Assembly (NCBI GenBank): GCA_938040915.1
Contig: CALHZE010000252.1
Span: 1-44,099, forward strand
DNA length: 44,099 nt
Reading direction: 5' to 3'
DNA from: an uncultured Bacteroidia bacterium
Lineage (GTDB): Bacteria; Bacteroidota; Bacteroidia; Bacteroidales; CAJPTX01
Positions 2,985 to 40,473 of this stretch are shown one piece after another. The notes under the pieces were generated by a model. That model saw only the letters and a list, made by a program, of their open reading frames with translations, was not told the origin of the DNA and made no database searches. A program made the position numbers and the translations under genes. Within the stretch, counting starts at the first letter, position 1; each line of letters opens with the position of its first letter.

Positions 2985-3008
2985 CCTTGGGGGTGAATGA
3001 TGTAACAG

Positions 3009-3036
3009 GGGAGGGCTTCGAGGCTCTCCCTTTTTT
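3009..3036 (+). terminator. Rho-independent terminator after gldN
   Basis: 8-bp stem (GGGAGGGC / GCTCTCCC with one G:U pair), 6-nt loop, then TTTTTT at 3031-3036. It lies 25 nt after the gldN stop. Confidence 0.6.
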
Positions 3037-3069: not shown

Positions 3070-3077
3070 TACCTTTG
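3070..3077 (+). promoter_or_regulatory. Candidate Bacteroidota -7 promoter box (TAccTTTG) for the A1-B1-A2-B2 block
   Basis: Matches the TAnnTTTG consensus. The same octamer occurs upstream of tRNA-Cys and of rpsL. No well-spaced -33 TTTG was found, so support is weak. Confidence 0.3.
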
Positions 3078-3171
3078 AGTTGGTGGAGTCGATCCGCGCG
3101 ATCGGCTCGGGGGAAGTGGGGGCGGAATTGCTCGTGTGTGTTATTGTGCTTATGTCAGAAAAAGAAATCTC

Positions 3172-4416
3172 ATGAAAACGTTCCCGTATGTAGAGAGACT
3201 CTACCCAAATACACCACCAACAACAGATCCCAGAAAGTTTGACGATGCATGTGAACTCTTTGTGGAAGGAAAAGTGAAAGAGAGCATTCATGCGCAGCTC
3301 GATTACTACAACCCGTGGCTTCGTCTCAAGTGTGATGATGATCAGAAGGGGACGGGGCAACCTGTTTGGACAAACCAACCGAAAGGGGGCTGGGCAAATC
3401 TCCGTAGGAAGCTCGAGAAACCCGTTTATGGACCAGGACGCCGCTTTACGATCCCTCACGGCTCTTTGATACTCTATTTGGAGATTACGGAGTCAGAATT
3501 CCGCCTCCGTATCCCTTTTGTGCGACTCCCGAAAGACTCTTCGCGTGTCATTGCTTTTTTGAGAGAGGTCAATGAGGTCAATTACCTTCTTGACTGGTTT
3601 CAACTTGTCTTGCGAGAGGAGGAATTGATCTGCGAGTATTCGTGTCCCCTCCCTGTTGCGAACCCAGACAAAATCTCGCGTATCCTCTCTGAGGCTTGTC
3701 TTGAGTTGTGTTATAAGGCCGAAGAGCTTGTGTATCACTTTGGAGGCGAGTGGGTCGAGAAACCTCGTTATCTTCCCTGTCCAGCGTCTGACGTAGAGCG
3801 AGTGATAAAGAGTTACCGAGCGCTTTGTGCGTGGTTGGAAGAACGCTTGCTGCAACCCTATGCACACCTGCTTGAGGATTATATTGAGGAGCTCTTTGAG
3901 CTCTCGTTTGTCTTATTGCTCTTTTTCACTCGCACGGGTGGTTATCTAGAGCAACGCATCTCGGAAATTTTTGGTAGCTCTCCTGAGCTCTATGAGGAGG
4001 GTGAGTCGCGTGGTATTGAGCATTTGAGAAAGATTGTTACTAAGCTACACGCGATTACAGATGATGAATTGCGTAGCTATTTGCATAGGAAACCGCATTT
4101 TATCCTACTCTATCAAATATTTTCTTTAGGTGAATTCCAGAACAACGTGAGCCGATATCTGTCGCCTCTCGTGAGCCCATCCTCTTATGAGTCTGAATGC
4201 GCTTTTTTGAGTGTGGTTCGTTTGATGTTGCTTCAGAGTGCGCGGCAAGACCTGCCCTCTAAGGTCAATCGTATCATTGATAAGGCGTTGCGTGCTGTCA
4301 TGGGGGTCGACAGCAGAAAGGCGATCCCCGTCTTATTAAAGGCCTGTAACGACCTATTAGACTTACCTGTGATAGGGAAAGGGGCGTTGCAGGAACGGGT
4401 AAAATGGGAGGCATAG
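3172..4416 (+). CDS. Hypothetical protein A1: chaperone-like (YbjN-like?) N-terminal domain plus all-helical C-terminal half; paralog of 5631-6809
   Basis: I start it at the internal ATG (MKTFPYVERLYPN...), which aligns with the A2 N-terminus (MKRTYTYDERLFAN...). Shared blocks with A2 include YGPGRxFTIPHG and CPxxDVxRVI. No signal peptide or TM helix. I recognise no known family. Confidence 0.7.
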   Translation: MKTFPYVERLYPNTPPTTDPRKFDDACELFVEGKVKESIHAQLDYYNPWLRLKCDDDQKGTGQPVWTNQPKGGWANLRRKLEKPVYGPGRRFTIPHGSLILYLEITESEFRLRIPFVRLPKDSSRVIAFLREVNEVNYLLDWFQLVLREEELICEYSCPLPVANPDKISRILSEACLELCYKAEELVYHFGGEWVEKPRYLPCPASDVERVIKSYRALCAWLEERLLQPYAHLLEDYIEELFELSFVLLLFFTRTGGYLEQRISEIFGSSPELYEEGESRGIEHLRKIVTKLHAITDDELRSYLHRKPHFILLYQIFSLGEFQNNVSRYLSPLVSPSSYESECAFLSVVRLMLLQSARQDLPSKVNRIIDKALRAVMGVDSRKAIPVLLKACNDLLDLPVIGKGALQERVKWEA

Positions 4417-4418
4417 TC

Positions 4419-5588
4419 ATGAAGATAAAATTAGATACACTCCCCATTGTCAAGGTGTTGACGGAGGAGGGCTCTGGAACGGGGTTCTATTTTCGCCGTC
4501 CCAATTATTTTTTGACCAATCAGCACGTGGTTGATAATGAGAAGGAGATTGCCATAGAAACCCAGCAGAAGCAACGAATGCAGGGGCGCGTAATCCTCGT
4601 AAATCAAAACCTAGACTTGGCCCTTTTTACGGTCGCTGGTGACTTGAGTGACTGGACTCCTATGGAGTTTGCCCCGAGTGATTCGTTGGATGTCGGCGAC
4701 GTAATCTATTCGGTGGGCTTCTCATTAGGAATCCCATTGACGGTCACCGAGGGGATTATTTCAGCCGTCCGTCAGGAGCTTGGGGATAGATATATGATTC
4801 AGACGGATGCTGCGATCAATCCGGGGAATTCGGGAGGCCCCCTGCTTAATGATGTGGGGCAGGTGTGTGGGGTCACGTGCAGGAAGATGTTTTTGATGGA
4901 CAATATGGGGTTCGGTATTATGCTTTCGGACATCCGTAATTTTCTAGAAAGCGCTTCTCTTTTGGAGGACGACGAGCGTTACCACTATCAGTGTCCGTCT
5001 TGTGGGCGTGTCATTTCCGACTCTTTGCTCAAATACTGTCCAGAGTGTGGCTTGGTCGTGCCAGAAGACGCCTTCCTTATCGAGGAGAAGACGGACTTTC
5101 AGAAGTTCCTTTTAGAAATTCTGAGTCTGGTGGGCTTAAACTCAGAAGAACTGCAGGGAAGCGACGTTTTTGAGTTCCATTATAAGCACCTCAAATGTAG
5201 AGGGCGGAGCGGGGAGCGAGGCGTCTTCTTTAAGTCGGTGATTAACAAATTACCGAAACAGGGACACGACGCGCTCTTTAAGTATCTTTTGAGTGCGCCC
5301 GTTGCACCTTATCGCCTTGCGGTCAACGATTCTGACATTTCTATGTCATATTTGGTACATTTGCGAGACTTGTTAGACCCAGAATTTCGGACTTTGCGCG
5401 TAAAGGAGTTTGCAGAGTTCTTAGATAAGGCCTTCTATATGAGTCAGTTGCTCGCCGATCGGTTCGCTTGTCCTTATCCCAAAATGCACGATGAGGGGAC
5501 GATGGACGACGAAGAGGAGGATACAGACGCGATGCTCCCCCAGCGATCTTCGATGGCAGAATGCTCGGTGAGCGCAAGCTCGGAATAA
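4419..5588 (+). CDS. Protease B1: leaderless trypsin-fold (S1/Trypsin_2-like) serine protease + CPxC-X11-CPxC zinc ribbon + C-terminal chaperone-like domain + acidic tail
   Basis: Triad motifs are present: TNQHVV (His), NLDLALF (Asp) and NPGNSGGPL (Ser). Zinc ribbon: YQCPSCGRVISDSLLKYCPECG. The start could be ATG 4419 (2 nt after the A1 stop) or ATG 4404 (overlapping A1). Paralog of 6837-7943. Confidence 0.8.
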   Translation: MKIKLDTLPIVKVLTEEGSGTGFYFRRPNYFLTNQHVVDNEKEIAIETQQKQRMQGRVILVNQNLDLALFTVAGDLSDWTPMEFAPSDSLDVGDVIYSVGFSLGIPLTVTEGIISAVRQELGDRYMIQTDAAINPGNSGGPLLNDVGQVCGVTCRKMFLMDNMGFGIMLSDIRNFLESASLLEDDERYHYQCPSCGRVISDSLLKYCPECGLVVPEDAFLIEEKTDFQKFLLEILSLVGLNSEELQGSDVFEFHYKHLKCRGRSGERGVFFKSVINKLPKQGHDALFKYLLSAPVAPYRLAVNDSDISMSYLVHLRDLLDPEFRTLRVKEFAEFLDKAFYMSQLLADRFACPYPKMHDEGTMDDEEEDTDAMLPQRSSMAECSVSASSE

Positions 5589-5630: not shown

Positions 5631-6809
5631 ATGAAAAGGACATACACATACGATGAACGTCTTTTCGCCAACGTGCCGCCATATGACAGCCCGAAGGCGT
5701 ATGAGAAGAGTCGAGATAAATTTGACCAAGGGGCGTATCTAGAAAGCGTCCATTACCTGTTGGATTCTTTTAACCCGAATGCCCGACTCGAGTATGATAA
5801 TGAGTTGGAAAGACGACCAGAAAAAAAGTCGTTCTTCAGTCGACTTTTCTCTAGATCGGGAGAAAAAAGCTACGGTCCAGGGCGAAGCTTTACGATTCCC
5901 CACGGCGCCTTGAAACTCCATATTTCAATATCCGACGAGCGCTTTGATGTCCATGTACCCTTCCTCGAGTTACCCGATGATGGGCGCGCAATCCCGATGA
6001 TGCGAACCGCGTGTGAGCTGAACTTGGGGCAGCTCGATACGGTCTTTGTAACCCTGAAGGAAAAGCAATTGCATTTTGACTTCTCGTGCCCTCTCGAATT
6101 GGCGCATCCGCGAAAGTTGCGCTATATGTTTCAAGAGCTTTGCGCAGTAGCCAATCGGCATTACTATGAGTTTATTGAGAAGTTTGGCGCAAAGCCCATC
6201 GAAGCGCCGCAAATCATCGAGTGCCCGCCGGAAGATGTGACTCGGGTGATCGGGGTGATCCGCCGTACCTCTAAAGAGATCCGAACCGCTGTGCAGGAGT
6301 GTGTGGACGAACGGAAGATTGACTCTGCATGGCACGTCTTCTTGGCCGGCTTTCTCAAGTTGAATTATGTCATCCAATCTCAAAGCTCGCTTTATTACAC
6401 GTTCCGCCGGACACTCCACGAGCTCTCTGACGACGATTTAGATCTACCTCAGACGGTCACGGCTGGCTTGCGATTCCTTGACGAACTCGACGCTAAGTCT
6501 GACGACGAGTATCGGGCATTGCTGCACAAGATGCCGATCTTTTGCTCGCTGAAGGGGGGAATCGATCTGGGGGATGTCCGTTCGGACGTCTCTCAAAGCT
6601 TAGAATCTGCAATTAAAGACTTTGAGAGCAATGCAGAGGAAGCTTGTTTGAAGTGCCTTTTCCGCATTTATAACATTTACTTCTTTAACGATGTCCCCGA
6701 GGAGTGGGATCGGGTACTTGTGCAAACACTACGTCTTTCACAAGACAAACCGTTTGATACGGCGGCTCCCATCTTGTTTAAGGGGCTGAGTGAACTGTCT
6801 AAGCGATAA
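5631..6809 (+). CDS. Hypothetical protein A2, paralog of A1
   Basis: 392 aa and alignable with A1 along its length (YGPGRSFTIPHG, FSCPL, CPPEDVTRVI, DDEYRALLHKMP). No signal peptide. Confidence 0.7.
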   Translation: MKRTYTYDERLFANVPPYDSPKAYEKSRDKFDQGAYLESVHYLLDSFNPNARLEYDNELERRPEKKSFFSRLFSRSGEKSYGPGRSFTIPHGALKLHISISDERFDVHVPFLELPDDGRAIPMMRTACELNLGQLDTVFVTLKEKQLHFDFSCPLELAHPRKLRYMFQELCAVANRHYYEFIEKFGAKPIEAPQIIECPPEDVTRVIGVIRRTSKEIRTAVQECVDERKIDSAWHVFLAGFLKLNYVIQSQSSLYYTFRRTLHELSDDDLDLPQTVTAGLRFLDELDAKSDDEYRALLHKMPIFCSLKGGIDLGDVRSDVSQSLESAIKDFESNAEEACLKCLFRIYNIYFFNDVPEEWDRVLVQTLRLSQDKPFDTAAPILFKGLSELSKR

Positions 6810-6836: not shown

Positions 6837-7943
6837 ATGGCCAATCATATAGATTATACCTCCGTGGTAAAGATTATCACGAGTGACGGCTCCGGATCGG
6901 GATTCTTTTTCCGGCGTCCGAATTATTTTATTACCAATTTCCACGTCGTCGAAGGATACCGAGATGTTACCGTCGAACTGCAGGATGAAGAGCGTCTCCG
7001 CGCTTCGGTGTTGCTCGTGAGTCAACACTTAGACCTCGCGATTATTCGTGTGGAGGGGGACTTTGAAAAATGGACTCCGTTAGAATTTTGCGAAGAAGAC
7101 GCATTGCAACTCTCTGACAAGATCGTGGTCGGGGGGTTTGCCTTGGGAAAACCGTTTTCCATAACCGAGGGAGTGGTCTCTTCGCCGCGTCAGAAGGCCG
7201 ATGGTCGTTATTTGATTCAAACCGATGCGGCTGTAAACCCAGGGAATTCGGGAGGACCGATGTTTAACTCGGAAGGGAAAGTCAGTGCCGTTGTCGTGAG
7301 CAAAATTAAGGGTGCCGAGAATGTCGGTTTCGGGATTCCCATTGCCGATGTTAAAAAGGTCTTTAAGGCGTTAGGAGAAATATCAGACGAGGCGCGTTAT
7401 TACTATCAGTGCCCTGGTTGTGATAAACCACTAATGGATGAAACAGCAAAGTTTTGCCCATCGTGTGGCGCAGATATCCCGCGAGAAGCCTTTAATGAAA
7501 AGACCAAGTCAGACTTCACTAAATTGGGCGAAGAAATCATCCGCGCAATAGGCATCGACCCACTTCTTGCGAATAATGGTGATGAGGATTGGAAGTTTTA
7601 CTACAAGGGGGCTTTAATCCGTGCTTATGATTACGGGCGAAGCTTTATTATCTTCTTGAGCAATATCAATTTGCTACCAAAGCAAGAGCTCCAACCTCTC
7701 TTTGAGTATATGCTTTCGAATCCGGTGGCCCCCTACCAGCTGGGGATTCGTGAAAACGATGTGGTACTCTACTCCTGTATCCACTTGACCGATTTGCAGA
7801 ATGAGAAGCATCGTGACCGGATTATTAAGGAGTTGGCGGCTTTGCCTGAAAAGGCAGCAGAGTTGGACGATTTCTTGAATACGAAGTTCGGGTGTCGTTT
7901 CCCGGAACGGAAAGATTCGGTCGAGCAGTCCGCTGAGGCTTAG
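6837..7943 (+). CDS. Protease B2: trypsin-fold serine protease + zinc ribbon + chaperone-like C-terminal domain; paralog of B1
   Basis: Triad motifs ITNFHVV, HLDLAII and NPGNSGGPM. Zinc ribbon YQCPGCDKPLMDETAKFCPSCG. Shared blocks with B1: FRRPNYF, GRYxIQTDAA, NPVAPY. Confidence 0.8.
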   Translation: MANHIDYTSVVKIITSDGSGSGFFFRRPNYFITNFHVVEGYRDVTVELQDEERLRASVLLVSQHLDLAIIRVEGDFEKWTPLEFCEEDALQLSDKIVVGGFALGKPFSITEGVVSSPRQKADGRYLIQTDAAVNPGNSGGPMFNSEGKVSAVVVSKIKGAENVGFGIPIADVKKVFKALGEISDEARYYYQCPGCDKPLMDETAKFCPSCGADIPREAFNEKTKSDFTKLGEEIIRAIGIDPLLANNGDEDWKFYYKGALIRAYDYGRSFIIFLSNINLLPKQELQPLFEYMLSNPVAPYQLGIRENDVVLYSCIHLTDLQNEKHRDRIIKELAALPEKAAELDDFLNTKFGCRFPERKDSVEQSAEA

Positions 7944-9919: not shown

Positions 9920-12529
9920 ATGCTATCTACTCGCTATGAGCCTACAGAAATAGAGCGTAAGTGGTACGCTTGGTGGTTAGAGAAGAATTTATTCCACTCC
10001 GAACCAGATGACCGAAAACCCTACACCGTGGTGATCCCGCCGCCTAATGTGACGGGGATTCTTCACATGGGGCACATGCTGAATAACACCATCCAAGATG
10101 TACTGGTGCGTCGGGCTCGTATGCGAGGCCTTAATGCGTGTTGGGTACCAGGGACAGATCACGCCTCAATTGCAACAGAAGCGAAAGTGGTCGAGAAGCT
10201 CCGTAAGGAGGGGATTGATAAGCATTCTCTATCTCGCGAAGATTTCCTAAAACATGCTTGGGAGTGGACGCATAAGCACGGAGGTATCATCCTTGAGCAA
10301 TTGAAACGATTGGGAGCATCGTGTGATTGGCAACGGACCGCCTTCACGATGGACGAGGTGAGGAGTGAGAGTGTGATTCATGTCTTTGTCGATCTTTACC
10401 GTAAGGGGTTGATTTATCAAGGCGTCCGTATGGTAAACTGGGATCCGCAAGCTCAGACGGCGCTCAGTGACGAAGAGGTGCTCCATGTGGAAGAGCAGTC
10501 TAAGCTCTATTATCTGCGTTACCAGATCGTCGGTAGCCAACGCGCGCTTATTGTGGCAACGACGCGTCCAGAAACGATAATGGGCGATGTGGCGGTATGT
10601 GTGAATCCGAATGACGAACGTTATAAGGAACTTTTATCTTGCCGCGTAATTGTCCCGTTGGTGAATCGCGAAGTCCCGATCGTTGCCGATGAGCATGTAG
10701 ACCCAGCCTTTGGTACAGGGATTCTCAAGATTACGCCGGCGCACGCCATTGACGACTACGAGATCGGCTTGAAGTATAATCTCGAGGTTATTGATACCTT
10801 CACCGAACAGGGGACAATCCGAGAAGGGGTTGGGCTCTATGAGGGTATGGATCGTTTCGATGTCCGCAAGCAAATCGTAAAGGATCTTGCTGCGGCAGGG
10901 CTATTAGAAAAAGAAGAAGATTATACCCATACCATTGGGATTAGTGAGCGAACGAAGGCGGTCATAGAGCCAAAGTTGTCTACTCAGTGGTTTTTGAAAG
11001 TTGAGTCACTTGCCAAGCGAGCTCTCCAAGCCGTGGAAAATGGGGAAATTGAGCTTATGCCATCTCGCTTTGTCGGCGTTTATCGGCATTGGTTAGAGAA
11101 TTCGCGTGATTGGTGTATTTCGCGTCAGCTTTGGTGGGGGCATCGCATCCCAGCGTGGTATTTGCCGGATGGCAGAGTCGTTATTGCGCATAATGCTGAG
11201 GAAGCGCTTGTTGAGGCGCAAAAGCTGCAATCCACGATTCGTCCGGAAGACTTGAAGCAGGACTAGGATGTCTTAGACACGTGGTATAGTTCGTGGTTAT
11301 GGCCGATGTCGGTGTTTGATGGTATCCTGCATCCCGACAACCCAGACTTCCGGTACTATTACCCCACGACCGATCTTGTGACAGCCCCAGACATCATCTT
11401 CTTTTGGGTGGCGCGAATGGTTATGGCTGGGTATGAGTATGTAGGGAAGCGCCCATTCGAACGGGTCTATTTCACAGGAACCGTGAGAGATATGCTACAT
11501 CGGAAAATGAGCAAATCTCTTGGGAATAGTCCTGATGCGCTGGAACTCATTGATAAGTTCGGCGCGGATGGGGTTCGTTGCGGTATGCTTTTTTGCTCTG
11601 CGGCGGGAAATGACTTGATGTTTGAGGAAAAACTCACTGAGCAGGGACGTAACTTTAGTAACAAGATTTGGAATGCCTTTCGTCTCGTCCAAGGGTGGAA
11701 GGAAGATTTGGTCGATGCCCCTAATCCGGAACGAGGGCATGCGATAGCGATGTTTGAGGCGCGTATGAACGAAGTGCTCTTGCTCGTCGAAGAGGATATG
11801 AAAGATTATCGCCTCTCTGAGGCGTTACTTGAACTCTATCGCCTCTTCTGGGATGACTTCTCTTCGTGGCTTCTCGAGTTGGTAAAACCTCGGGGGGCGC
11901 AAAAGATGGATAGAGACTCGCTCAATGCGATAGAGCAGATATTTGATCGTCTCTTGCAGCACCTACATCCTTTTATGCCATTCATTACAGAGGAGCTTTG
12001 GCACAATTTGGGCGATGTGACGGCACGAGCTGAGCGGAGCATTATGCAGGAACTCCTCTCTGAACCAATTGCACCCGATTCTTCTTTGCTGGAAGAATTC
12101 CAACTTTTGAAGGATCTGGTCAGTGGTGTGAGGGCGTTGCGACAATCGAAGGGACTCTCTTTGAAAGAGCGCCTCCCGTTGTATTATCGTGGTCGTTTTG
12201 CTATGACATCTTCTGGAGTGCAGCTTTTAGAGATGCTCGCTTCGGTTGACGTGAAGGGAGATGTGACGGAAATACCTGCCAAGTCTGCCTCCTTTATGGT
12301 CGGGCTCTTGGAATGTTTTATTCCGCTTGGTGACAAGCTAGATAACGAGACAGAGAGAGAGAAGACGGAAAAAGAGATCGCGTATTACGAGGGGTTGCGT
12401 GCCTTGATTCTTAAGAAGTTAGAGAACCCGAAATTTGTGAATAAAGCGCCTGCTGCGGTGATCGAGGCCGAAAGGAAAAAGTTGGCAGATACGGAGTCTA
12501 AGCTCATGGCTCTTCGTGAACAGATTTAA
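9920..12529 (+). pseudogene. valS: Valine--tRNA ligase (ValS) reading frame interrupted by one in-frame TAG (11264-11266); otherwise intact
   Basis: The ORFs 9920-11266 and 11306-12529 are in the same frame. The HIGH motif ([13 protein letters not shown]) is in the first part and KMSKS (RKMSKSLGN) is in the second. Sequence across the stop reads LKQD*DVLDTWYSSWLWP, and the equivalent E. coli segment is RDEDVLDTWFSS. The stop therefore replaces a conserved Glu (GAG to TAG). Confidence 0.9.
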
Positions 12530-13410: not shown

Positions 13411-13481
13411 GGTATCATGGCCGAGTGGTTAGGCAGAGGTCTGCAAAACCTCGTACAGCGGTTCGAATCCGCTTGATACCT
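13411..13481 (+). tRNA. tRNA-Cys (anticodon GCA)
   Basis: It folds by hand into a cloverleaf. Acceptor stem GGTATCA/TGATACC; anticodon stem GAGGT/ACCTC with loop CTGCAAA; T arm AGCGG-TTCGAAT-CCGCT; 71 nt; no encoded CCA. Confidence 0.9.
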
Positions 13482-13516
13482 CTTGCATGAAAGCATGCGG
13501 TTTTCTTCTGACGGGA

Positions 13517-36372: not shown

Positions 36373-39300
36373 ATGAAAAACCTTTTTCTCTTTCTCCTCT
36401 TTTTCTATTCTCTGTCGTTTTTATATGCAGAGGATGATTGGCATAACGAAAATGGAGTGTATTATCATTTGGATAAAGAAAAGAAAGAAGCTTCATTTAG
36501 TTTGGGAAGTGACTATTTACCGCAGGAGGTTATGATAGTCCCAGAAAGAATATCCCATGATGGCGTCGAATATAAAGTGGTGCGTATGGACGAAATCTCT
36601 TCTATACGTAATGTTCGGGAAATTAGGATTCCTTCCTCCGTTCGCGAGATAAAGAGAATTCATAAGATGCCGCTCCTCAAAAAAGTTGTGCTTGCTCATG
36701 ACGCGCCAGTGAGTATATTTGAGAACTGTCCTTTTGAGGATTTAGAGGAGCTCGTCTTCGAGGGAGGAGAATTAGATAATTTTACCCGAATCGGTAATAT
36801 ACTCTATAGTAAGGATCTTAAAACGATATATGATATTACTCCATTTAATGTGCAGTGTTTTTTTATTCCCCGTCAAGTGGAACAGTTATACCTTAACATA
36901 GGGGAGGAGAAGTGTAAGAAATTGGAGCTTGTTTTACACAAAAATGTCCGTAATGTATATGTCAATGATGAATTGAATAAACACTTTGGACGTTTTTATT
37001 TCATTACTCCTTTGGATGACGCCGGTGATGAATCGAATTTCTTTTGGAGTTTGTATAAATCAGAGTACCGCGCACGTTTAGTCTACAATCTTGGGCTAGA
37101 ACGACTAGAAGGATTACCTTTCAATCAAAAGAAGTTTTTGAGGAATTCTCTTTCGCTTGAGCCTTTCCCATATTATCTAAATCCAGCCTTTTCCTCTGAT
37201 GTAAAGCAATTAGAACTTTGTTTTATAGAAAAGAAGGGGGGAGCAGATGCGCATTTTGAAACGATTACGGAAAGTGGGAAACAATATCTCCTTAAGTGGT
37301 CATTGCTCCCTGTGAATGTGCGAGCTATTCCTAAGGAAGGGAAGCGTATTGTGGGGTATATCTCTTTTAATGACACGATCGTCGGCGATACATGCACAAT
37401 TCTTAATTGTTTTTCGAACCAATCCTTAAAAGTGCTTTCTGCAGAAGAGGGCGAACTCATTAATGGGATTGATTATCGTTTATCGCAGGATCAGAAGACG
37501 CTGATCTCTTGGCGTTCTTCTGCATTATTTGAGGACTTACGAAAGAGTCTTTTACTACAAGATGTCGAAAAGATCTCTCGTAATGCTATTGTGTTAAATG
37601 AGCGTTGTGAAGAACTATTCTTGCCTAATAAAACACTCTCTTTAGAGTCGTTCTTTGTGAAAAAGGACGCCGCTGTGAAAAAGCTTGCTCTTTCTCCGTT
37701 GATGACATCGTTATCACAAGATGCGCTCTTGACACTACCACTTCTGAAATCTCTTTACATACCAGGTACAGCGCGCATGGAGAGTGATATGCTTGATCGA
37801 GCGCTGGTTCGACAACGTGCTCATCTAAAGCATATTTATGTAGATGAGGAGAATCTTGTTGCTTGGAAAGATAAGTTTTTAGATCATCCCCTTTCTTCTT
37901 ATTTGACGCCCGTACCCAAAGAGGTAAATCTTACTAATATCGCGACGGATAAAGTGGAGATTGTTGTAAAAGATCTTACGCGGGATAGGGAATTCATTCT
38001 AAATCAAGAGCATCCTTCGTTGTCTCTTCCGAGAACAACTCATACTAGATTGCAATGGAAATCCCTTCCTAGTTACGCCATTCAGCAACCGATCGTGAAT
38101 GAGACTGCGTTGGATACGGATGCATATGAGTCGTTTCTTTTAGAAAACTTAGATTTATCGAGTCGTGGAGAAGTTATAAAGCACTCTATAGAGATTGCCA
38201 AATCTAGTGGAGGAAGGATAAGTTTGTTCACGGAGCAGGGAGCTGAATTAGAAGCAAAGTCTGTAATTAATGTATTGCGAGGAACTAGAATTCGAGTACA
38301 TGTAGAACCATATGATGGGTATATTTTCCGGACGTGTTCGATAAACGGGACTGTTTATCAAGAGAATGAGATGGATATAACCGTTGGTTCTAATGTAAGT
38401 ATAGTGGCAACATTCTATCGACCGAAAACATTAGTCCAACTTTCACTCCCATCACGGAGCTCGATCTCGTTTACTGATGTTCATGGAACTCTCCTGTTAC
38501 CAGAGCACATTTATAGGAATGATGTCATTTATGTCCAACGTCCCCTCCTTCCAGATGGTATGAAAATTGACCGTCTGGAAGTCAATGGGGTAACTGTAAC
38601 AACGTTTCCATATCAAGTCCGAGTGCAGGAAGAATTAAAGGTCGCATTAACTATAATGCCCCTCCTGCATACGATAACACTAACTCCTAAGGCTAGTAAG
38701 TATCTTAGAATTACCTCGGAGGATGGGGTTGTACTTTCGACTGAAGATAAGATTGTCGATCAGACGAAATGTCAGGTCTCGTATGCAGGTTTGCCGTTTG
38801 AACGATTAGAAAAATGCATCATAAATACTCTGGAATATCCAGCGACTGTATTACCTCTTGCTTTTACAGTAGATAGAGATTTGAGTATCGATGTCGTGGT
38901 AAGAGAAGTAACTTGTCGCGTCTTCTTGACATTTCCTCAACAATGTTCTGTCTTTATCGGAGAACAAGAAATTACCTCTTCTCCCTACGAGTATGTTGGA
39001 AAATATATGGACGAGTTGAAGATTCGCGCCGTACCTAAGGATAGATATTGTGTAAAAGAGTACAATCTGAATGGAAGTCGATATTTAGGTAACGAATTGA
39101 CGTATCGCTTAACGGAAGATGCCAATCTTATGTTCTATGCTTCCCCGAATTTTGTCTCGCTTTCTACATTGGTTGATGGCAATGGACAAATTTTAATAGA
39201 GAGGAAGGAGAAGCTAGGAGACGCTGCCGTAAGGCTTGTCGCTAGTGGAACGTCCGTGAAAGTCACGCCAGTTCCAGCTAAGAACTATTATTGTGAGAGC

Positions 39301-40473
39301 CTCATTATAAATGGCGTATTGCAGGACTCCGTCGTAGTGGAGTTTCAGCCTCTTGTAGATTCGGAGATCCGAGCGGTCTTCAAACCATACATTTGGGAAT
39401 ATCGTGACGGCTATGCTGTTTGTGAGAAGATTAACCAAATTTCTAAGGGACTTAACTCTGTTCAGAAACTCACGATTGTAGAGGATGGTCGTTTTGACAT
39501 TGTGCCTTGCGCTTTTGCAACGGATGGTGTTTTAGAGGAGTTGCGCTTAGAAAAGGGAGTTTACAGTGTTGGAGATTCTGCTTTTTATCATTCTACATTA
39601 AGAGCAGTTTACCTAGGTAAGGATGTTAATAGTGTTGGGACAAGAGCGTTTTCATCCTGTTCTAACTTGTCTTTAGTAGAGATCGAGCAGAGAGATCCTA
39701 CACTTTTGCATTTCTCAAAAGACGCTTTCAGTAGTGTGAAAAGGAAACCATTTTTGAGAGTTCCCAATGGGACATCAGAAGCGTTTGAGAAAAGTGGAAA
39801 CTATAAAAAGTTTATTATCGTCGAACGTACTATTCAATGTACAATAGAAGGTTCATTCTTTACAGCGAATGACGTGTTGCCGATTGAGTTCTCAGAATGC
39901 GGGGAAAGTGCTAAACAGGATACTTTACTAAATAAGGGAACGTGTACCTTTTTAGGAGGTACATGTCTATATTTTACCAAGAAAAAGCTAAAAACTAAAG
40001 GGGTGGAGTTGCTTGTTAATGGTCAGAAAAGGAATTTCCCAAGCTCGATTGACCTTACCCAACCGGTCACCATTACGCTCAATTTGACGGATGACAAGTC
40101 AGATGGAAATAATGATGGTGACGAAGGTGAACAATCGGGAGAAGGGGAGGGAGATAAGAACAATAATAATAATAACAATAATAACAACAATAAGAATAAT
40201 AAGGACGATACCACTACAGGTATCTTTGAACAATTAGGCGATCCGAAGTCGTTGTGGGTTCATCCAAATCCGACAACTGGTTTTTTGGTATTGCCAGACT
40301 TCCTCCCCTCTGGGACAATATATCAGCTGGTAAATCTTACAGGGCAAGTGCTACAACGTGATTTCTTGCCGCCTTCGAAGGTACTTGATGTGCAGATGTT
40401 ACGTCCTGGTTTGTATATTGTGTGCGTATTCTTGGATGAGCACAACTATACCGCAAAGTTCGTAAAGCTCTAG
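36373..40473 (+). CDS. Large secreted BspA-type leucine-rich-repeat surface protein with tandem beta-rich modules and a T9SS C-terminal sorting domain
   Basis: 1366 aa with a signal peptide (MKNLFLFLLFFYSLSFLYA). BspA-like LRR blocks occur, for example IVPCAFATDGVLEELRLEKGVYSVGDSAFYHSTLRAVYLGKDVNSVGTRAFSSCSNLSLVEI. The C-terminus LWVHPNPTTGFLVL...LVNLTGQVL...LRPGLYIVCVF...KFVKL is a typical Por_Secre_tail / T9SS type A CTD. Confidence 0.85.
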   Translation: MKNLFLFLLFFYSLSFLYAEDDWHNENGVYYHLDKEKKEASFSLGSDYLPQEVMIVPERISHDGVEYKVVRMDEISSIRNVREIRIPSSVREIKRIHKMPLLKKVVLAHDAPVSIFENCPFEDLEELVFEGGELDNFTRIGNILYSKDLKTIYDITPFNVQCFFIPRQVEQLYLNIGEEKCKKLELVLHKNVRNVYVNDELNKHFGRFYFITPLDDAGDESNFFWSLYKSEYRARLVYNLGLERLEGLPFNQKKFLRNSLSLEPFPYYLNPAFSSDVKQLELCFIEKKGGADAHFETITESGKQYLLKWSLLPVNVRAIPKEGKRIVGYISFNDTIVGDTCTILNCFSNQSLKVLSAEEGELINGIDYRLSQDQKTLISWRSSALFEDLRKSLLLQDVEKISRNAIVLNERCEELFLPNKTLSLESFFVKKDAAVKKLALSPLMTSLSQDALLTLPLLKSLYIPGTARMESDMLDRALVRQRAHLKHIYVDEENLVAWKDKFLDHPLSSYLTPVPKEVNLTNIATDKVEIVVKDLTRDREFILNQEHPSLSLPRTTHTRLQWKSLPSYAIQQPIVNETALDTDAYESFLLENLDLSSRGEVIKHSIEIAKSSGGRISLFTEQGAELEAKSVINVLRGTRIRVHVEPYDGYIFRTCSINGTVYQENEMDITVGSNVSIVATFYRPKTLVQLSLPSRSSISFTDVHGTLLLPEHIYRNDVIYVQRPLLPDGMKIDRLEVNGVTVTTFPYQVRVQEELKVALTIMPLLHTITLTPKASKYLRITSEDGVVLSTEDKIVDQTKCQVSYAGLPFERLEKCIINTLEYPATVLPLAFTVDRDLSIDVVVREVTCRVFLTFPQQCSVFIGEQEITSSPYEYVGKYMDELKIRAVPKDRYCVKEYNLNGSRYLGNELTYRLTEDANLMFYASPNFVSLSTLVDGNGQILIERKEKLGDAAVRLVASGTSVKVTPVPAKNYYCESLIINGVLQDSVVVEFQPLVDSEIRAVFKPYIWEYRDGYAVCEKINQISKGLNSVQKLTIVEDGRFDIVPCAFATDGVLEELRLEKGVYSVGDSAFYHSTLRAVYLGKDVNSVGTRAFSSCSNLSLVEIEQRDPTLLHFSKDAFSSVKRKPFLRVPNGTSEAFEKSGNYKKFIIVERTIQCTIEGSFFTANDVLPIEFSECGESAKQDTLLNKGTCTFLGGTCLYFTKKKLKTKGVELLVNGQKRNFPSSIDLTQPVTITLNLTDDKSDGNNDGDEGEQSGEGEGDKNNNNNNNNNNNKNNKDDTTTGIFEQLGDPKSLWVHPNPTTGFLVLPDFLPSGTIYQLVNLTGQVLQRDFLPPSKVLDVQMLRPGLYIVCVFLDEHNYTAKFVKL
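37930..39387 (+). repeat. Protein-level tandem array: about six ~80-aa beta-rich modules (divergent InlB-B-repeat / Ig-like style) inside the LRR protein
   Basis: A hydrophobic-x-(I/V/L)N(G/E/T) landmark recurs at residues about 575, 657, 738, 817, 899 and 979, with spacings of 82, 81, 79, 82 and 80 aa. Each is preceded by a V.V.P..(G)Y-like strand pattern. A seventh, more distant copy lies near residue 1216. The repeat is not visible at the DNA level. Confidence 0.55.
40159..40200 (+). repeat. AAT/AAC codon run encoding N11-K-N-N (poly-Asn linker) just before the T9SS CTD
   Basis: aacaataataataataacaataataacaacaat aag aat aat, in frame. It follows an acidic/Gly-rich stretch (DGNNDGDEGEQSGEGEGDK). 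Confidence 0.9.

Follow-up and report, generated by a model that had tools for sequence, protein, structure and literature searches.

The HtrA proteases (MEROPS S1C; DegP, DegQ, DegS, T. maritima HtrA and human HtrA1/2) are the textbook example of PDZ-regulated enzymes engaged in extracytoplasmic quality control. They have a catalytic domain with an H-D-S triad and the TDAAINPGNSGGPL signature, followed by a non-catalytic module that binds peptides, and they assemble via their non-catalytic domains, these being the PDZ domains in the DegP 12- and 24-mers. Two genes of related design, B1 and B2, each preceded by a gene for a partner protein (A1 and A2), are present in a 44,099-nucleotide stretch of DNA (hereafter "the window") from an uncultured Bacteroidia bacterium (contig CALHZE010000252.1). 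The B proteins share with HtrA the signature, the triad and the position of a non-catalytic module after the protease, and the active and inactive members of their family parallel the chaperone and protease duality of DegP. They differ from HtrA in having a predicted zinc ribbon and a YbjN/type III secretion system (T3SS) chaperone-fold domain instead of a PDZ domain, in lacking a signal peptide or membrane anchor (one family member, P0170, apart), and in having the separate partner gene A. With moderate confidence, A1-B1 and A2-B2 are read here as copies of a conserved module for a cytoplasmic, PDZ-less HtrA-type protease complex, in which a pair of chaperone-like domains, one from A and one from B, would substitute for the PDZ domain.

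The chaperone-like domain of B has, according to Foldseek, the same fold as the YbjN family (6VU7, Tll0839 2PLG, AmyR 5FR7, DR1245 and BacA 8Q8O), and the class I T3SS chaperones (SycN-YscB, 1XKP) have this fold as well. A YbjN protein is small (~150 aa) and stands alone, whereas here the fold is fused either to a protease and a ribbon (B) or to a ~210-aa region (A); unlike the T3SS chaperones, the B domain shares its polypeptide chain with a protease. Both the YbjN proteins and the T3SS chaperones act as dimers and hold segments of extended polypeptide, and in SycN-YscB two paralogous chaperone subunits form a heterodimer around an extended segment of the client. Neither the examined parts of the window nor the flanks of related loci contain T3SS apparatus or effector genes, and no T3SS is known from the host phyla. 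DR1245, a member of the YbjN family, is a dimer that acts through protein-protein contacts (PMC3575483). The best Pfam match of the N-terminal domain of A, TY-Chap1 (PF22551), occurs in ARG-centred predicted anti-ADP-ribosylation systems, in which ARG, a phosphatase and a Nudix/WYL regulator are its neighbours (Iyer et al. 2022, PMC9503650). In contrast, the partner of A is a protease, and ARG, phosphatase, Nudix/WYL and REase neighbours were seen at no examined locus.

B also has weak NCBIfam matches to the models of both members of the magnetosome pair MamE/MamO. These belong to an HtrA-fold family in which active proteases occur beside repurposed, catalytically degenerate members; both are associated with membranes and have PDZ, heme or transporter-like (TauE) domains. 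They lack the chaperone-fold domain, the zinc ribbon and the A-type partner. Each domain of the B and A proteins is known at the superfamily level; their combination appears to be new. No description of the B architecture was found in the literature, papers of the Aravind laboratory included, and Pfam has no family covering the C-terminal domain of B or the C-terminal half of A. In the source annotations B is called "trypsin-like peptidase domain-containing protein", "serine protease" or "serine protease Do", and A "hypothetical protein".

Residues ~10-180 of B are assigned to the HtrA clade (Pfam Trypsin_2, 8e-31; NCBIfam TIGR02037, 3e-37). The TIGR02037 match is at the level of the domain only: its score of 128 bits is far under the 416-bit cut-off for full-length HtrA because B has no PDZ domain. 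None was detected in B by Pfam at E<=1, and the zinc ribbon and chaperone-fold domain stand in its place. The three catalytic motifs on which a sequence-only reading of the window had based a probably active protease are present in both copies (TNQHVV, LDLA and NPGNSGGP in B1; TNFHVV, LDLA and NPGNSGGP in B2). The triad H36/D66/S138, numbered from the Met at 4419, is intact: it lies in invariant columns of an alignment of 54 sequences (B1, B2 and 52 homologues) and aligns with the catalytic motifs of solved HtrA structures. B has a chymotrypsin-fold domain with the His-Asp-Ser triad and a GNSGG oxyanion loop. The full-length AlphaFold2 model calculated from the 54-sequence alignment has a mean predicted local distance difference test (pLDDT) value of 86.9 and a predicted TM-score (pTM) of 0.74, and its protease domain resembles DegQ, DegP, MucD and DegS (Foldseek, E ~1e-16). 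The best solved sequence relative of the domain is T. maritima HtrA (1L1J, E=2.6e-24). Superposition onto solved HtrA proteases gives 25-32% identity and a root-mean-square deviation of 2.3-2.9 Å over ~190 aligned columns.

The same reading had placed both B proteins in the cytoplasm, in agreement with what is found across the family. The catalytic His is situated at residue 31-45 in all 54 sequences, showing that the protease domain begins essentially at the N-terminus, and a lipobox occurs in none of them (0/54). The highest 10-residue hydropathy within the first 35 residues of B1 is 1.46, compared with 2.32 for the signal peptide of E. coli DegP. In the 54 homologues no 19-residue segment resembles a membrane helix and there is no signal-peptide-like hydrophobic stretch. 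By these hydropathy and lipobox rules, the signal peptide or membrane anchor that goes with the extracytoplasmic location of HtrA is not a feature of the B family, P0170 excepted.

The protease domain is followed by a four-Cys element, YHYQCPSC-X11-CPECG in B1 and YYYQCPGC-X11-CPSCG in B2, which is a predicted zinc ribbon. The spacing of eleven residues is identical in the two copies, as had been noted from the sequence. However, it is not the family norm: the spacer is 10 in 45 of the 54 homologues and 13 in six, and X11 is confined to B1, B2 and a relative with 77% identity to B1. The four cysteines, C192, C195, C207 and C210, are invariant, both in the 54-sequence alignment and in all 79 full-length representatives aligned. 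The element follows the pattern CxxC-X10-13-CxxC, with short strands at 189-191 and after, and residues ~188-213 are modelled by AlphaFold2 with a pLDDT of ~96; the Pfam zinc-ribbon matches of the B1 element are sub-threshold. The acidic, Ser-rich tail of B1 is also present as described, with residues 360-389 predicted to be disordered (pLDDT <50). It is lineage-specific, being shared with the 77% homologue (P0002) and absent elsewhere.

Between the ribbon and the tail lies a domain of ~135 aa (residues ~222-352). Its AlphaFold2 model has the topology alpha-beta3-alpha-beta2-alpha, with helices at 226-237, 283-292 and 315-349 and strands at 250-255, 258-264, 268-277, 299-303 and 306-314. This topology is common to the YbjN proteins and the T3SS chaperones, both of which are homodimers (PMC3575483). 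The domain was modelled alone (pLDDT 89.9) because the protease domain swamped the Foldseek run of the full-length model. In the search with the isolated domain the best 44 PDB matches are all members of the YbjN family or class I T3SS chaperones (TM-score 0.38-0.63). The YbjN-family structures among these 44 are 2PLG, 6VU7 and 8Q8O, AmyR (5FR7) being at rank 50; the T3SS chaperones are SycT, SycH, ExsC, STM2138, SpcU, SycE, InvB, SigE, SicP, CesT, VecA, SycN/YscB, SpcS and Spa15. A profile built from 26 of the domains finds the YbjN homologue 2PLG over the full length of the domain with E=3.4e-6, a sequence-profile relation to a known member of the superfamily. Single domains give weak but convergent Pfam matches to CesT, CesT_Tir_1, TY-Chap1 and YbjN (E=0.018-0.15). 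Isolated C-terminal domains of B1 and B2, like both halves of A, have no significant Pfam or NCBIfam match; the signal for the C-terminal domain of B and for A came only from family-wide scans and profiles. The LPKQ...PVAPY block and the ends RFACPYP (B1) and KFGCRFP (B2), pointed out in the sequence-only reading, are both there. The resemblance to the YbjN/T3SS chaperone fold, which that reading had guessed at, is borne out by the 44 Foldseek matches and the 2PLG profile match, and the assignment of this fold to the C-terminal domain of B is supported by the model.

The partner protein A begins with a helix, continues with a TY-chaperone-like domain and ends in a half of ~210 aa for which no family is recognised. 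The domain at residues ~91-202 of A matches that of B in a profile-profile alignment (hhalign, 96.7%, E=4e-10), and both have an HGS turn and an ADxxDD-LVxxFG helix motif, from which it follows that A and B carry paralogous chaperone-fold domains. Judged by these sequence motifs, the domains of A and B form a clade of their own. Co-variation of ADxxDD between A and B was rejected as an argument, as the Muribaculaceae-type genome (L001) retains the motif in A and not in B. Of eight A-family proteins, five match TY-Chap1 in Pfam (best 8e-6) and one matches YbjN (7.7e-6); P0122 has a precomputed TY-Chap1 match. A1 alone is sub-threshold for TY-Chap1 (14.9 bits against a cut-off of 27), and the A-family profile finds 2PLG with E=0.0022. 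The C-terminal half of A matches no family, giving only weak matches to designed helical repeats and HA2 coiled coils, and is unlike the tetratricopeptide repeat (TPR) arrays that some B proteins carry. When homologues of A were sought by word index, only 2 and 13 matches came back, because A diverges too fast.

The genes for A and B are closely linked. At 16 of 17 B loci, from at least six phyla, the gene immediately 5' of B is an A gene; these 16 are both copies in the window and 14 further loci. The latter include a Muribaculaceae-type metagenome-assembled genome (L001), Aquimarina (L002), Maribacter (L003), Ignavibacteriaceae (L004), Chitinophaga (L005), Leptospiraceae (L081), Ahniella (L082), Gracilibacteria (L083), WOR-3 (L085) and Cytophagales (L087). 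The others are L086, with the same gene order around the module as L004; L088; L091, where A overlaps a catalytically dead B by 4 nt; and L093, from the relative with 77% identity to B1, which has the same gld-A1-B1-A2-B2-typA-valS array as the window. The upstream open reading frames (ORFs) of the A family are 368-444 aa long, and A and B either overlap, by up to 4 nt, or lie up to 28 nt apart. Loci that did not enter the A hidden Markov model (HMM) match it at E=1e-15 to 1e-97; the upstream ORFs of L093 (415 and 393 aa) were judged from the gene table and not scored by this model. The pattern DAA[IV]NPGNS, taken from the full B alignment, proved generic to HtrA, and five of the 80 loci found with it were true family members. 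One ORF tried as a further A, at 6046-7344 of L081 (432 aa, sharing 38 nt with the 3' end of B), was rejected, having 9% identity to A1 and no Pfam match.

The genes flanking the module are housekeeping genes that vary with lineage: gldLMN, typA and valS in the window, and leuS, recQ and gdhA elsewhere. In the two Ignavibacteria-type loci (L004 and L086) the module is flanked by fabD and fabG. No mobile-element, integrase or defence genes were seen in the flanks of related loci. The ribbon and chaperone-like module of B2 had no tblastn match among 50,697 phage and 72,556 plasmid records and no significant viral fold match. These surroundings bear on the possibility that A and B form a toxin-antitoxin-like conflict module, in which B would be a toxic protease and A a chaperone-like immunity protein or sensor that releases it upon phage infection or stress. 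Such a role would agree with the much faster evolution of A than of B (13-28% versus 30-41% identity), with the tandem duplication into divergent copies, with the similarity of the B trypsin domain to the retron type XI and Lamassu LmuA effectors in PADLOC, and with the definition of TY-Chap1 in predicted anti-viral systems (PMC9503650). However, the PADLOC matches cover only the generic trypsin domain, and A1 and A2 match no PADLOC model. The neighbours are housekeeping genes with synteny at the level of the lineage (fabD/fabG in L004 and L086, gld-AB-AB-typA-valS in the relative), integrases and other defence genes were not seen, and the phage and plasmid records searched contained no copy. 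Furthermore, the ARG, phosphatase, Nudix and WYL context of the TY-Chap1 systems is absent, and pseudoprotease members retain partner A. A conflict module is accordingly considered unlikely.

The position of the module directly downstream of gldK/L/M/N, in the window as well as in a relative, together with a Por_Secre_tail gene upstream in L086, raises the question of a link to the type IX secretion system (T9SS). By analogy with the T3SS chaperones, the module would handle T9SS cargo in the cytoplasm. This is highly improbable, since a strong terminator separates gldN from A1, other Bacteroidota have other neighbours, and the module is also found in Leptospiraceae, Gracilibacteria, WOR-3 and Ahniella. 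To our knowledge, none of these four is known to have a T9SS.

Upstream of the module in L089, positions 239-1519 encode a secreted CarbopepD_reg_2-type protein, according to the Pfam entry in the gene table. The upstream ORFs in L001 (1390-3942) and L003 (2579-3910) have signal-like N-termini and look similar to it by eye. The three may represent residual synteny within the phylum.

The family is small: an exhaustive HMM search over 1.84 billion clusters at 50% identity found the C-terminal domain of B in 516 representatives at E<=1e-3, 259 of them at E<=1e-10. Full-length family members are mostly 340-380 aa long, with the domain at ~210-360. Three of them (P0147, P0149 and P0164) are B proteins with a C-terminal TPR array, of which at least P0149 follows an A gene. 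In two independent proteins, P0182 (L089, 1818-3383) and P0194 (L090, 147-1760), a complete A is joined to a B-type chaperone-fold domain. The A parts of these fusions have E=3.5e-85 and 5.6e-61 and the B-domain parts E ~1e-28; neither fusion includes a protease or a ribbon.

Homodimerization of the YbjN proteins and T3SS chaperones (PMC3575483) would also be compatible with a mainly homo-oligomeric role for the B domain, linking HtrA trimers into cages, with A competing for the interface or acting separately. The DegP cage structures that head the Foldseek list of the full-length model are in keeping with this arrangement, as is the single B locus that has no A (L092). Nevertheless, the presence of A upstream at 16 of 17 loci, where the stop codon of A often overlaps the start codon of B, and the existence of the fusions of A with the B domain speak against it. 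The linkage and the fusions favor direct contact between A and B, with B-B contacts possible as well, and a predominantly homo-oligomeric role for the domain does not seem likely.

Not all members of the family are active. The triad is substituted in 18 of the 79 full-length representatives aligned (an alignment to which B1 and B2 were added), for example to QNI, QGV, FGL, HDN or YDE, while the four cysteines are intact. One to three catalytic residues are lost, and all four ribbon cysteines kept, in a subset of B proteins, seen among the representatives P0207-P0281 and in the B genes at L091 5001-6071 and L092 2536-3630. In place of TN.HVV, the His region of the pseudoproteases has the motif VT.E(H/Q).VR. 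The sequences suggest that the catalytically dead B proteins form a distinct pseudoprotease subfamily. These proteins are relevant to a further possibility, namely that A is a dedicated substrate or pro-protein of B, with B docking on A through the chaperone-like domains and cleaving it to free an active fragment, for instance the C-terminal half of A. Strict linkage in a fixed gene order and the two-part architecture of A, with a variable junction, would be expected of such a substrate. However, no conserved candidate cleavage motif is present in the alignments of A, dead B proteins still keep their A, and the A-B fusions are without any protease, making this possibility very unlikely.

The evidence on A and B fits the earlier suggestion, made from the sequence of B, that the chaperone-like module delivers substrates to the protease or inhibits it until a partner relieves the inhibition. 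The paralogous domain of A, the conserved A-B module, the catalytically dead members and the X10 norm of the ribbon go beyond that suggestion. In the cytoplasmic A-B complex favored here, the chaperone-like domains of A and B would pair as a heterodimer in the way that SycN and YscB do. The pair would do the job that the PDZ domains have in DegP and DegS, capturing part of a client, or of A itself, in an extended or unfolded state. The captured segment would then be presented to the catalytic domain, or the catalytic activity would be gated, while the fast-evolving C-terminal half of A might set specificity or regulation. As partner, ribbon and chaperone-like domain all persist in the dead members, holding is probably a core activity, to which proteolysis would have been added, as in the dual chaperone/protease DegP. 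Put together, this would amount to a new chaperone-protease machine in which a YbjN-fold heterodimer of A and B captures clients and feeds or gates the HtrA domain, with the pseudoproteases serving as holdases; such a machine is proposed only tentatively.

Several points weigh against a cytoplasmic A-B complex. The case for the heterodimer is made from homology, adjacency and two fusion proteins. The fusions P0182 and P0194 could be decayed loci, as no protease gene is found in the neighborhood of P0182 in L089. L092, a contig of 4.6 kb, has a catalytically dead B and no A. No neighborhood conserved beyond the A-B pair points to a pathway. The B domain is under the Pfam gathering thresholds of YbjN, TY-Chap1 and CesT. 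The lack of an export signal was judged from hydropathy and lipobox rules. In P0170 (480 aa) the N-terminal region, membrane anchor included, is that of a classical HtrA and is joined to a B-type ribbon and chaperone-fold domain, so that a cytoplasmic location need not hold for every member; this protein, a recombinant or else a chimeric assembly, is the sole exception to the cytoplasmic pattern. Lastly, B1 has replaced six chaperone-domain positions that are at least 90% conserved (E232, R246, W251, G256, D339 and D342) and B2 has replaced three, for which reason the copies in the window may behave atypically.

The two copies have diverged to different extents. B1 and B2 share 41% identity over 360 aa, and A1 and A2 28%; the triad and the ribbon are retained in B1 and B2 alike. 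Against other members of the family, at most loci, B2 scores 240-270 bits and B1 170-210, and A2 scores 100-157 and A1 57-75. A1 and B1 both score under A2 and B2 against every other family member. This gap identifies pair 2 as the canonical pair and pair 1 as a co-diverged duplicate, which, as far as the sequences tell, is probably sub-functionalised. The presence of the same array in the relative with 77% identity shows that the duplication is older than the split from that relative.

The four genes lie on the same strand between gldN and typA (Table 1). The hairpin after gldN is called as a strong terminator and sets the gld operon apart from A1-B1-A2-B2. The sequence TACCTTTG downstream of it is a candidate A1 promoter, put forward by comparison with TAnnTTTG, which we take to be the Bacteroidota -7 consensus. 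The start of B1 is uncertain, being either ATG 4419 or ATG 4404, the latter overlapping the A1 stop.

Table 1. Positions in the window of the A-B genes, their domains and nearby signals
Feature	Position	Strand	Remarks
Terminator-like hairpin	3007-3032	+	11-bp stem and T-run, after gldN
Candidate promoter TACCTTTG	3071-3078	+	fits Bacteroidota -7 TAnnTTTG; ~95 nt 5' of A1 start
A1, partner protein	3172-4416	+	414 aa from ATG 3172; ORF open from GTG 3136
A1 TY-chaperone (YbjN/TY-Chap1)-like domain	3439-3774	+	homologous to C-terminal domain of B
B1	4419-5588	+	protease, predicted zinc ribbon, TY-chaperone-like domain, acidic tail
B1 HtrA-clade trypsin-fold protease domain	4446-4958	+	Pfam, NCBIfam, Foldseek, invariant columns
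B1 catalytic codons	H36 4524-4526; D66 4614-4616; S138 4830-4832	+	
B1 predicted zinc ribbon CPSC-X11-CPEC	4980-5057	+	C192, C195, C207, C210
B1 TY-chaperone (YbjN/class I T3SS chaperone)-like domain	5082-5474	+	alpha-beta3-alpha-beta2-alpha in the model
B1 acidic Ser-rich tail	5481-5585	+	predicted disordered
A2, partner protein, canonical pair	5631-6809	+	392 aa; TY-chaperone-like domain ~5868-6200
B2, canonical copy	6837-7943	+	protease ~6864-7376; ribbon ~7398-7475; TY-chaperone-like domain ~7500-7892

Other parts of the window have features of note. The valS gene (9920-12529) is broken by one in-frame TAG at 11264-11266, with both halves in the same frame; the close relative has an intact valS, the 869-aa product of which runs past the end of the fetched locus. 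The stop codons of 25 long ORFs are TAG (13), TAA (11) and TGA (1). Because TAG is an ordinary stop here and the relative's valS is intact, a nonsense single-nucleotide polymorphism or an assembly error in this essential gene is more likely than recoding. A tRNA-Cys(GCA) at 13411-13482, between birA and a ugd-like gene, is the only Rfam/ARAGORN match in the window. Between 18300 and 36200 there is a run of short ORFs on the + strand, including ones of 705, 436 and 339 aa, with a strong positive GC skew of 0.2-0.3; it looks like the ribosomal-protein/fusA/secY/rpoA superoperon. An ORF of 1366 aa at 36373-40473, where the GC content falls from ~0.48 to 0.38-0.43, may be foreign or otherwise unusual.

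A cytoplasmic, PDZ-less branch of HtrA with a secretion-chaperone fold would broaden the known regulation of HtrA proteases. YbjN-family proteins are widespread, yet how they work is not known in any clear mechanistic terms; in the A-B module the fold is tied to an enzyme that can be assayed and to a partner, making its binding function directly testable. If the A-B machine is real, it would define a biochemical role for the YbjN fold that has nothing to do with secretion. Since the module is found in housekeeping regions of many Bacteroidota, Ignavibacteria, Leptospiraceae and candidate phyla, it may be a component of proteostasis or regulated proteolysis that has so far been missing from the picture of their cytoplasm.

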